From an uncultured Actinomycetes bacterium (GTDB taxonomy: Bacteria > Actinomycetota > Thermoleophilia > Gaiellales > JAICJC01): 64,000 nt of DNA. Under the pieces are notes generated by a model. The model searched no databases and was not told where the DNA came from. It was given only the letters and a program-made list of their open reading frames with translations. Positions within the stretch are counted from its first letter, which is position 1. Each line of letters opens with the position of its first letter. Shown in pieces: positions 3,848 through 6,412 of this stretch. The DNA lies in assembly GCA_963825325.1 (NCBI GenBank), contig CAWGSU010000005.1:119736-183735 (forward strand), given 5' to 3'. Made by a program: the position numbers and the translations under genes.

Positions 3848-6052
3848 TCAGCCGGTGAAGCGGAACGGCTGCAGACCCGACTTGCCGCCCGGTCCCATGA
3901 CGGTCAGCCAGAAGGCGCCCGCCACCGGGACGAGCTTCGTGAGGTAGGTCGTCGCGGGCGCCGTGAACGTGACCGCGTTCGTGTGCTTGCCCGGATGGGC
4001 GAGGTCGAACCCCTCGAGCGTGCCCGTCACGGTCTGGCCCGCCGGCGGCGAATACGAGGTCGTCCACAGGATGCCCTTGTCGACGTCGATCCGCACCGGT
4101 GGCACCGGCAGGCCCGGCACCGGCTTCTGCGACGACGGGTGCTTGGGATCGATCTTGAGGACGCCCGTCGCCGTGGTGACGTAGACCGCGGAGTCGTCGC
4201 CGGCAATCCAGCCGACATCCTTGCCGGGGCTCGGCAGGGTGACGACGGTCGCGATCGGCTTCGGCGTCGCGAGCGGGACCTGGGCCAGGTGCTCCCCGCC
4301 CTTGTCGGTCGCCCAGATCGATCCGGCCACGAGCTCGACGGAGTACGGCTCGAACGCGATCCCCTGCACCTGCTGGGGGCTGCCGCCGCCCTCGGGAATC
4401 TTGACCAGGCCCTTGCGCGTGGGCTGCCAGATGGTGCCGCCGCTGACGACCGCCCGGGGTGATGCCGGCGGGCTGCCGTAGGCGATCGGCGGGCCGACGG
4501 CGGGCGACTGCCCGGGCGCGACCCGGCGGATCTCGCCGGCCGCGCCGTTCGTGCTGCTCACCCAGAGCGCGCCGTCGCCGGACGTCAGGCTCGAACCGCC
4601 CGTGCCCATCTGGACGGGCACGGTGGTGCCGCTGCTCGAAAGGTCGACGATCTCCTTCGGCTTGTGCATCGCCCAGGCGTGGCCGTCGAAGGCCGAGACG
4701 CTCTGGAGGTTGCCGGGCTCGAACTGGGCGGGCACGGCCGTGACGGTCGGGAGCTTCGCCCCCGTCGTCCCCGTTCCGCCGGTCTTCGTGGTCGGGTTCG
4801 TCCCCGACCCGGACGACGACGAGCCGCTGCCCTTGGTGACGAGGTAGGCCCCGGCGGCGATCGCGGCGATCGCGACCAGGCACGCCGGGATGATCAGACG
4901 GCGGCTGCTGCGGCTCTGGGCCGGCCACTGGAACGTCTCGGATGAGGCCGGCGCCGCGGCGGCCGGCGCGGCGGTGGCCTGCCCGGCCGCAGCCGCCGCG
5001 GCCGGCGGGACCGGCTGGCCGGGTAGCGTCGCATCCGGCCGCTGCGGCGGCGGCGGAGGCGGGGGCGGTGTCGCCGCCGGGCTCTCGCCCAGGTAGGTCT
5101 CGTAGCCGCTGCCGGCCTCCTGCGGCGGCGGCGTCTGGCGGTCGAACGGCGCCGGGGTCAGCGGCCCCGCCGCCCGGTCGGTGCCCGAGACGAGCAGGCG
5201 CGCCTCCCGCCGCCACAGCGGGCCGAGCGCCGCCACGGCGATCTCCTCGAGCTCGTACCAGGCCTCGCGCGCGCTCTGGGTGCGCTTGGCGGGATCCTTC
5301 ACGAGCAGCCGGTCGATCCAGTCGGAGAAGCGGCGGTCGACGCTCGGGTTGACCGAGACGGCCGAGGGGATCTCCTCGCTCACCTGCCGCATCAGCACCG
5401 CAACGGGCGTCGTCGAGTCGTGGAAGGGGACGCGGTCGACGGTCATCTCGTAGGCGGTGATCCCGACCGAGTACAGGTCGGTCCACGGGCCGACGTCCCC
5501 GGCGGTGGCCTGCTCCGGCGCCATGTAGGCGGGCGTGCCGACGGTCGTGCCGGTGGCCGTGAGGTTCGGGCCGCCCGCGTCGGTCAGCGCCTTGGCGATT
5601 CCGAAGTCGGCGATCTTCACCTCGCCGTCGCTCGTCACCATCAGGTTCTCGGGCTTGATGTCGCGGTGCACGATCTCGCGCCGCTCGGCCTGGGCGAGGC
5701 CGGCCAGGGCGCCCTCGAGCATGCCGATCGTCTGGGCGAGCGTCGTCTTGCCGACGTACGGGCGCAGCGAGCCGCGCTCGAGGTACTCCATGGCGATGTA
5801 CGGCGTGCCGGCCTCGTTCAGGAACTCGTACACGGTGACGATGTTCGGGTGCTGCATCGAGCCGGCCACGCGCGACTCGCGCACGAAGCGCTCGGCGAAC
5901 GCCGGATCGGCGGCGTGGAAGGCGTTCAGCTCCTTGAGCGCGACGTCGCGGTCGAGGTCGACCTGTTTGGCCAGGTACACGGCGGCCATGCCGCCGCGGC
6001 CGATCTCGCGGACGAGCCGGTACCTGCCGACCTGGCGGATGGGCTCATCCAC
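3848..6052 (-). CDS. Hanks-type Ser/Thr protein kinase with TM helix and C-terminal beta-propeller-like domain
   Basis: 'IGRGGMAAVY', 'VALKE', 'HRDIKPEN', 'DFG', 'GTPAYMAPEQ'; poly-Pro linker; TM 'LIIPACLVAIAAIAAGAYLV'; repeated 'G.LW' blades. Confidence 0.92.
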   Translation of the reverse strand: MDEPIRQVGRYRLVREIGRGGMAAVYLAKQVDLDRDVALKELNAFHAADPAFAERFVRESRVAGSMQHPNIVTVYEFLNEAGTPYIAMEYLERGSLRPYVGKTTLAQTIGMLEGALAGLAQAERREIVHRDIKPENLMVTSDGEVKIADFGIAKALTDAGGPNLTATGTTVGTPAYMAPEQATAGDVGPWTDLYSVGITAYEMTVDRVPFHDSTTPVAVLMRQVSEEIPSAVSVNPSVDRRFSDWIDRLLVKDPAKRTQSAREAWYELEEIAVAALGPLWRREARLLVSGTDRAAGPLTPAPFDRQTPPPQEAGSGYETYLGESPAATPPPPPPPPQRPDATLPGQPVPPAAAAAAGQATAAPAAAAPASSETFQWPAQSRSSRRLIIPACLVAIAAIAAGAYLVTKGSGSSSSGSGTNPTTKTGGTGTTGAKLPTVTAVPAQFEPGNLQSVSAFDGHAWAMHKPKEIVDLSSSGTTVPVQMGTGGSSLTSGDGALWVSSTNGAAGEIRRVAPGQSPAVGPPIAYGSPPASPRAVVSGGTIWQPTRKGLVKIPEGGGSPQQVQGIAFEPYSVELVAGSIWATDKGGEHLAQVPLATPKPIATVVTLPSPGKDVGWIAGDDSAVYVTTATGVLKIDPKHPSSQKPVPGLPVPPVRIDVDKGILWTTSYSPPAGQTVTGTLEGFDLAHPGKHTNAVTFTAPATTYLTKLVPVAGAFWLTVMGPGGKSGLQPFRFTG

Positions 6053-6073
6053 CGTGTCCCCCTGCCGTTTTGG

Positions 6074-6412
6074 TCACGACGCCTGGACGTTCGGCGCGCC
6101 GGGTGCCGCCACCATGATGGTGCCCGGTGGAACGCCGTCGGTGATGCCGGAGAGCGTCGAGATGTGCGCCGGCAGGCCGCCCACCATGACCGTGGGGGCG
6201 CTCCCGCCGGGGAGCGTCGAGATGACCGTCGTGCACGGCTTGCTGGCGATGGTCGGCGGCTGGGCGCAGCCGACGATCGGTGCCCCGATCAGGTCGGTCT
6301 CGCGCAGCACCGCCCCGCCCTGCGCCATGACCACGGTCTGCTTTGGGGTCAGGACGACGGTTCCGCCGTGGATGCAAATGATCGTGTCGTTGGTTGTCAC
6401 CACAGGTGGCAT
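6074..6412 (-). CDS. PAAR-like (DUF4280-like) spike-tip protein
   Basis: 112 aa, MPPVVTTNDTIICIHGG...IVGCAQPP...KPCTT; GGAG RBS before ATG at 6412; Cys/His pattern typical of PAAR-like proteins of contractile injection systems. Confidence 0.72.
   Translation of the reverse strand: MPPVVTTNDTIICIHGGTVVLTPKQTVVMAQGGAVLRETDLIGAPIVGCAQPPTIASKPCTTVISTLPGGSAPTVMVGGLPAHISTLSGITDGVPPGTIMVAAPGAPNVQAS

Follow-up and report, generated by a model that had tools for sequence, protein, structure and literature searches.

Why is a gene for a small protein placed directly in front of a membrane Ser/Thr kinase gene, and does this pair belong to a contractile injection system (CIS)? The question is raised by a 64,000-nt stretch of DNA from an uncultured Actinomycetes bacterium of the class Thermoleophilia (C5:119736-183735; hereafter the window, i.e. 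the whole stretch at its full length), which belongs to a 4.16-Mb genome in six contigs (G000) of which ~3% is unassembled. The first gene of the pair (window positions 6074..6412, minus strand, its ATG preceded by the ribosome-binding site GGGGGAG) encodes a 112-aa protein that starts MPPVVTTNDTIICIHGG. It is separated by a 21-nt spacer (6053..6073, minus strand), which carries the GGGGGA ribosome-binding site of the kinase gene, from the gene of a 734-aa Hanks-type membrane Ser/Thr kinase (3848..6052, minus strand; Pkinase E 1.3e-47). We consider it probable that the 112-aa protein is the spike tip (PAAR-like, equivalent to Afp10/Cis10) of a Streptomyces-type, fibre-less CIS, and that its gene was relocated to the kinase operon in a Thermoleophilia-type clade of soil Actinobacteria. 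The locus is that of a CIS, the modelled fold of the small protein is PAAR-like, its relatives in other genomes occupy the canonical position of a spike gene, and the tip, kinase and LuxR regulator genes form a conserved unit. A previous reading of the window (hereafter the sequence-only reading) had described the 112-aa open reading frame (ORF) as lying 21 bp upstream of the kinase gene and the pair as converging on FHA-M50 and NlpC/P60 genes, and these coordinates were confirmed.

The strongest evidence for the putative identity of the tip is provided by the context of the family elsewhere. Here, G000 denotes the genome of the window, other G-numbers the other sampled genomes, and L032 the Baekduia soli locus. 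Distant members of the family are encoded directly between the VgrG and gp25/baseplate-J genes in G081 as well as in G386, G375, G233, G455, G207, G444, G216, G377 and G278, and in L046 the order is a hub-like gene, the tip gene, a sheath initiator gene and Baseplate_J. Most Actinomycetota with the tip family have their tip gene in this slot between VgrG and gp25. In the Thermoleophilia-type clade of the window the slot is empty, and the tip gene has apparently moved to the far end of the locus. VgrG abuts gp25 in G000, G007 and G115, leaving no gene in the usual tip slot, and no PAAR_motif or DUF4280 gene was found in the G000 genome, the best PAAR_motif match anywhere having an E-value of 0.7 and lying elsewhere in the genome. 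The distribution of the family was determined in a class sample of 151 genomes, 15 of which have a Pvc16_N cap gene, and in a phylum sample of 401 genomes, 32 of them with the cap. All six genomes carrying the tip family in the class sample are among the cap-positive ones (P = 3e-7, or 7e-5 by genus), as are 10 of the 13 carriers in the phylum sample (P = 6e-10). Seven other cap-positive genomes have true DUF4280 genes, none of them overlapping with the carriers of the tip family, as would be expected if the two were alternative tip families.

Some relatives extend beyond the tip domain. On a farmland-soil metagenome contig (L045:680-2087), a member of the family is fused to a barnase-type ribonuclease and is directly followed by a barstar gene. 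A PAAR-toxin fusion followed by an immunity gene is a classic layout, and the two genes are a polymorphic toxin/immunity pair based on the tip domain. Such C-terminal extensions, together with the leader-tagged NlpC/P60 hydrolase encoded next to the pair in the window, which could be cargo, would also fit a protein that acts as the carrier of a separately encoded effector, in the manner of PAAR-adaptor proteins known from type VI secretion systems (T6SS). In that case, the kinase pairing would indicate that the loading of cargo is co-regulated, and not that assembly or firing is controlled. We regard this as quite improbable, since the protein encoded in the window is a bare 112-aa domain with no extension, and no effector-adaptor gene (DUF4123, DUF1795 or DUF2169) was seen in the locus.

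The small ORF can be taken as a real gene because it has 252 close homologues, 62-95% identical among those aligned, the named ones coming from Miltoncostaea, Baekduia and Solirubrobacteraceae. When 1.8 billion representative proteins were searched with a profile, 784 relatives were returned, mostly of 105-120 aa and some with long C-terminal extensions. A structure model obtained with AlphaFold2 (AF2) from an alignment of 47 diverse relatives (A2) reached a predicted local distance difference test score (pLDDT) of 90 and a predicted template-modelling (TM) score of 0.82. It replaced a first model based on a shallow alignment of the close family (A1), which had a pLDDT of 58 and with which a fold search was meaningless. 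When the A2-based model was compared with the PDB, the PAAR protein gp5.4 of phage T4 came first (TM 0.47/0.53, E 0.59) and a baseplate chain of phage P1 fourth (TM 0.50/0.57), the other listed matches having TM values of at most 0.34. In the viral library BFVD, the top 11 matches had probabilities of 0.82-1.0 with a best E-value of 0.014, and five of the six named ones were labelled 'PAAR motif' or COG4104. Since these E-values are weak, the evidence from modelling is consistent with a PAAR-like fold rather than conclusive. A sequence search of the PDB with the A1 profile gave no match, and the top three matches of the wider A2 profile, all non-significant, were gp5.4-type chains (two of them labelled gp5.4). 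The A2 alignment pairs QTVVMAQGGAVLRETD with the QSKVFTGGIAVLVAGD of gp5.4, a PAAR-type motif (again not significant), and the 112-aa protein contains one such motif, GGAVLRETD. Four residues are probable metal ligands: C13 and C49, which do not vary among the 47 diverse members, and H15 and C60, which at least 90% of these members have. Both the Cys/His residues and the PAAR-type motif are common to the members encoded in the VgrG-gp25 slot and to those linked to a kinase gene.

Within the clade of the window, the tip gene is directly followed by the kinase gene in nine loci (G000, G007, G115, G055, one G035 locus, Baekduia soli, L033, L034 and L035), and in a tenth place, a second locus of G035, the order is kinase, LuxR, tip. 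In Baekduia the pair shares a 4-bp overlap, and in other loci gaps of 9-31 bp separate the two genes. The kinase domains encoded downstream of the tip gene are 60-65% identical among orthologues, and the tip itself is 70% identical between G000 and G007, which makes it as conserved as the sheath and the tube. A LuxR/GerE regulator gene flanks the tip gene in six places, with orthologues 53-56% identical to that of the window in G007, G115, G055 and the second G035 locus, and a LuxR/GerE gene is also present in L035. The sequence-only reading had let its proposal depend on conservation of the gene pair and on a CIS in the genome; the pair occurs in these relatives, and the genome does encode a CIS. 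As a separate observation, genes for secreted beta-propeller proteins of the PD40/Tricorn type recur beside the tip-kinase-LuxR unit of relatives (L024:8435-10192; L035:7524-9248 and 14782-18292).

So constant a partnership could also mean that the small protein serves the kinase itself, as its dedicated partner, as a substrate or as a modulator (a cytoplasmic adaptor being one example). It would then not be mounted on a spike, and its PAAR-like shape would go back to a tip protein that was co-opted. The tip gene adjoins the kinase gene in all ten places (immediately upstream in nine) and never VgrG in this clade, its product is conserved to the same degree as the sheath and tube, and in L035 the LuxR-tip-kinase unit stands with no CIS gene within 10 kb. 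Against this, a CIS cap gene accompanies the tip family in all its carriers of the class sample, these loci have neither a gene in the VgrG-gp25 slot nor another candidate for the tip, and the probable metal ligands and the PAAR-type motif have been kept between in-slot and kinase-linked members. Two database proteins in which tip and kinase appear fused (P0164 and P0146), candidates for Rosetta-stone links, are frameshift artefacts, with junk sequence between the two parts. We therefore regard a role as kinase partner away from the spike as unlikely. The motif TDGVPPG was likewise considered as a clade-specific phosphosite for FHA binding and was rejected, T91 being conserved throughout the family, including in the toxin-fused P0168, which is not linked to a kinase.

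The CIS itself is encoded to the left of the window on the same contig, as one plus-strand array that starts with the cap gene 13.4 kb left of the window and continues up to a PASTA protein gene spanning the window start. In offsets from the window start, it comprises the Pvc16_N cap (-13436 to -12561), a conserved 123-aa protein (-12466 to -12095), the sheath (PF04984/PF17482; -12087 to -10531), a gp19-type tube (-10507 to -10067), a tail assembly chaperone (ending at -9669), a repeat-rich, tape-measure-like protein of 585 aa (-9507 to -7750), a CIS_tube protein with LysM (-7179 to -6502), VgrG (Phage_GPD and Phage_base_V; -6502 to -4865), gp25 (PF04965, 2e-24; -4868 to -4455), Baseplate_J (-4458 to -2458), Tail_P2_I (-2456 to -1770) and an 826-aa membrane protein with a zinc ribbon, a transmembrane helix, three PASTA domains and PD40 (-1773 to +707, the 3′ end of its gene being window positions 1..707). 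FHA-M50 and NlpC/P60 genes then continue the array. The best PDB matches of the sheath (8bky/8bl4, E 2e-165), baseplate-J (9gtp, E 3e-139) and VgrG (9gtr, E 5e-55) are all Streptomyces CIS structures. Because these three proteins are closest to the S. coelicolor/S. venezuelae CIS structures, the locus is assigned by sequence to the Streptomyces type, i.e. subtype IId of the extracellular contractile injection systems (eCIS). It is fibre-less, no tail-fibre-like gene having been found in the G000 CIS locus, and its structural operon ends inside the window. The protein in the tape-measure position (C5 110228-111985; compare L003:6229-7986) is built of tandem GEAHHLEREGRxLRSRAW repeats and has no family match.

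These genes bear on several proposals of the sequence-only reading. It had noted that the window holds no sheath, tube, VgrG or baseplate gene, and a check aimed at the sheath and the cap only agrees with this: each has one gene in the genome, the two lying 11-13 kb to the left of the window (the sheath at ~11 kb), and the other structural CIS genes follow them there. Its suggestion that the pair marks the distal end of an actinobacterial eCIS locus was borne out by inspection of the sequence to the left, which showed cap, sheath, tube, VgrG and baseplate genes, whereas its alternative, an orphan tip module, is rejected.

The window has a G+C content of ~74%, as a consequence of which long spurious ORFs are frequent, and genes were called by third-position G+C (GC3). 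The terminal part of the plus-strand array and the tip-kinase operon meet head-on. The 826-aa protein has an N-terminal zinc ribbon, a cytoplasmic region, a transmembrane helix (residues 301-319), its three PASTA domains (4e-24) and a PD40 propeller. It fills the tail-fibre/CisA slot straight after the baseplate genes, a position after Tail_P2_I that is kept in G007, G115, L032 and L034. Next comes a 545-aa protein combining a zinc ribbon, an FHA domain and an M50 intramembrane metalloprotease (709..2346, plus strand; FHA 2.9e-16, Peptidase_M50 4.2e-07), with four hydrophobic helices and a match to the daptide-type HExxH protease NF041824 (7e-44, 150 bits, below cut-off). This FHA-M50 protein is a candidate reader of phosphothreonine. 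Its gene occurs in five of the six related loci that have CIS genes in view, where the PASTA protein and the leader-tagged hydrolase recur as well; orthologues 47-50% identical occupy the same position in G007, G115 and Baekduia, and the gene order is also kept in L032 and L034. No FHA-M50, PASTA or NlpC homologue was found in the 33 kb around the in-slot tip gene of G081. The last gene of the plus-strand CIS operon encodes a 494-aa NlpC/P60 peptidoglycan hydrolase (2356..3840, plus strand; NLPC_P60 3.4e-25) with an N-terminal leader of the NHLP/Frankia-peptide kind (Frankia_peptide 4.8e-06, below cut-off, plus NHLP-type matches) and a further C-terminal domain. Over positions 709-3840, a protease resembling the leader peptidases of daptide-type ribosomally synthesized and post-translationally modified peptides adjoins a hydrolase bearing a leader.

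The kinase of the tip-kinase operon has intact catalytic motifs (VALK, HRDIKPEN, DFG and APE). Its cytoplasmic kinase domain is followed by a Pro/Ala-rich linker, one transmembrane helix (residues 387-405) and an ectodomain of ~330 aa, in which about seven repeats of ~42 aa built on G-x-W suggest, on reading the translation, a propeller-like structure, in line with the propeller named in the sequence-only reading; the ectodomain has no Pfam match and no sequence match in the PDB. No terminator-like site was found by a scan between the tip and kinase genes, so that the two are likely to be co-transcribed. The stop codons of the convergent kinase and NlpC/P60 genes are 7 bp apart (3841-3847). 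No terminator-like hairpin was detected there, and for these reasons the two converging transcripts may overlap. On the other side of the operon, after an intergenic region of 88 bp, a divergent gene encodes a LuxR/GerE-type response regulator of 212 aa (6501..7139, plus strand; GerE 1e-13). A plus-strand ORF covering 5535-7139 was rejected as a single gene, its part up to ~6412 being an antisense shadow and the genuine LuxR/GerE gene starting only at 6501. The receiver domain of the regulator is degenerate (Response_reg 26.8 bits for a cut-off of 30.2): IIDPHP replaces the acidic pair usually found, and Ala the usual Thr/Ser. No histidine kinase is encoded nearby; the regulator may instead be controlled by the adjacent Ser/Thr kinase. 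In an alignment of the five orthologous intergenic regions upstream of the tip gene, ATAGT is invariant. In the window it forms part of a -10-like element, GATAGT (6453..6458, minus strand; TATAGT in relatives), located 40 nt upstream of the tip start codon. A scan for consensus sigma-70 promoters gave no match at this element, whose conservation points to a putative promoter role. Beyond the LuxR gene, the translation of the minus strand from 7151 to ~8130 reads as a zinc-type alcohol dehydrogenase-like gene, which seems to form the boundary of the CIS locus on the right.

How could such an arrangement work? In the reading that we prefer, that of a relocated spike tip, the 112-aa protein would cap the VgrG trimer, and its synthesis would be tied to the kinase operon, with its own conserved putative promoter element, and not to the structural operon. 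The kinase could sense the envelope through its propeller-like ectodomain and phosphorylate cytoplasmic targets, possibly including the orphan LuxR regulator, and the FHA domain carried by the M50 protease might recognize the resulting phosphothreonine marks. Through the supply of the tip, the kinase signal would then decide the time and place at which the machine is completed or fired. Control from kinase to FHA protein is suggested here by conserved gene order. By analogy, the module may gate the CIS in a manner that resembles PpkA-Fha in the T6SS (PMC3953482) and CisA-dependent firing in Streptomyces (PMC12237407). A more direct version of this mechanism, which we judge rather unlikely, has the tip physically coupled to the kinase. 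The kinase would mark a membrane docking site for a spike-first approach, and phosphothreonine read by the FHA-M50 protein would license loading of the tip or firing, together with local release of the leader-tagged wall hydrolase. If this were true, a phage-tail-like machine would have a route across a Gram-positive envelope that is gated by a signal.

A number of points weigh against a relocated spike tip under kinase control. With regard to the protein, the fold matches are statistically weak (best E-values of 0.59 in the PDB and 0.014 in BFVD, TM ~0.5), and the 112-aa sequence has no match in Pfam, NCBIfam or PHROG even at permissive E-values. Neither PAAR_motif (PF05488, gathering score 27 bits) nor DUF4280 (PF14107, 26.3 bits) matches it. 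Relatives come closer, all of them below cut-off: three of the 47 match PAAR_motif at E 4.7e-4 or weaker, and the G035 orthologue reaches PAAR_motif at 22.6 bits (E 3.2e-4) and PHROG 281 'PAAR motif' at E 7e-4. Membership in DUF4280 was rejected, as hhalign against seven true DUF4280 proteins yielded a 20-column local match with 32% probability; the in-slot relative of G081 reaches this family at 17.8 bits, below the gathering score, and UniRef labels the Baekduia orthologue as DUF4280 despite the rejection. The PAAR-like call of the sequence-only reading thus holds at the level of fold and context and fails at the level of Pfam families. With regard to function, no PP2C phosphatase is present among the Pfam-annotated genes of the G000 locus, the tip-kinase-LuxR unit of L035 has no CIS gene nearby, as described above, the CIS of S. 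coelicolor is functional without any tip protein (PMC10066040), and gp5.4 of T4 is dispensable for assembly (PMC12407873). Supply of the tip may therefore gate nothing.

With regard to the machine, an AAA+ ATPase of the Afp15/Cis15 type is absent from the G000 cluster, tblastn with the Baekduia and Miltoncostaea ATPases giving generic AAA matches on other contigs only, and G000 is also devoid of the eCIS_core (DUF4157) gene that its relatives keep. The ATPase gene is present in G007, G115, L032 and L033, and ATPase and eCIS_core genes both lie beside the cluster in Miltoncostaea-like relatives and in Baekduia (compare L023:391-2902 and L026:15432-17898). The region upstream of the G000 cap (C5 105000-107200, ~14.7 to 12.5 kb left of the window) contains a short-chain dehydrogenase gene and an alanine-racemase-like gene instead. 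Loss of two genes that are kept in G007, G115 and Baekduia could mean that the CIS of G000 is decaying and that the tip-kinase pair is a relic that no longer serves injection. This seems very improbable to us, because about a dozen identified CIS genes and the accessory genes all have intact frames, the codon bias typical of the genome and GC3 values of 0.92-0.97, and because the tip, kinase and LuxR proteins are 53-70% identical to orthologues in another family, with the putative promoter element conserved too.

A spike tip in the kinase operon would be of interest for two reasons. Cytoplasmic, fibre-less CIS of actinobacteria need a trigger and a passage through the envelope, and the locus supplies named candidates for these, i.e. 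the receptor kinase, the FHA-coupled membrane protease, the PASTA protein in the CisA position and the LuxR regulator; the spike tip, moreover, has come to share a control unit with the kinase. In addition, the tip family (~780 representative clusters) is missed by domain libraries; such loci are therefore scored as lacking PAAR and are undercounted when the diversity of PAAR or the completeness of eCIS is surveyed. In the searchable literature, we found no description of an eCIS linked to a Ser/Thr kinase or to FHA, nor of the tip family, its receptor-kinase operon or the set of kinase, FHA-M50, PASTA and hydrolase genes on a Gram-positive CIS.

Compared with known PAAR tips (T4 gp5.4, PDB 4KU0/5IV5; PAAR proteins of the T6SS; Afp10/Pvc10/Cis10), the small protein is similar in its length of ~100 aa, its all-beta structure, its best structural matches, which are PAAR proteins, and its motif aligned with gp5.4, and also in that relatives are encoded right after VgrG, some with toxin extensions. 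The apex of gp5.4 holds a tetrahedral metal site (PMC12407873). The four conserved Cys/His residues fit such a site in number and kind of ligands, although the likely set is Cys3His here whereas it is His3Cys in gp5.4. Unlike in the PAAR tips, the gene of this clade is not located beside VgrG, which is ~11 kb away in the same locus, but in a Ser/Thr kinase operon. The Streptomyces systems CIS-Sc and CIS-Sv (PMC10066040, PMC12237407) share with the locus the closest core proteins, the lack of a tail-fibre gene and a membrane protein at the CisA position. That protein has a zinc ribbon, PASTA domains and a PD40 propeller here, in contrast to CisA, which is of a sugar-binding type, and an FHA-M50 protein, a leader-tagged NlpC/P60 hydrolase, a receptor kinase and a displaced tip have been added, while G000 is without the AAA ATPase.

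The threonine phosphorylation pathway of the T6SS consists of the kinase PpkA, the phosphatase PppA and Fha (PMC3953482). As in this pathway, a contractile-injection locus encodes an FHA protein along with a membrane Hanks kinase whose sensor domain is extracytoplasmic; the differences are that there is no PP2C phosphatase, that the FHA domain is fused to an M50 protease, that the kinase is paired with a spike tip, and that a monoderm is the host, its machine being of the eCIS type and not a T6SS. Similarly, the GerE domain is a conserved regulator of eCIS, found beside 25.8% of the loci (Geller et al. 2021, PMC8213781), and a GerE-domain regulator is encoded at the edge of the locus here as well; unlike those regulators, it belongs to the response regulators, has a degenerate receiver and lacks a histidine kinase in its vicinity, and its gene is divergent from the tip-kinase operon. 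The parts are of known kinds, namely a PAAR-like tip, a CIS of subtype IId and a Hanks kinase with an FHA partner.

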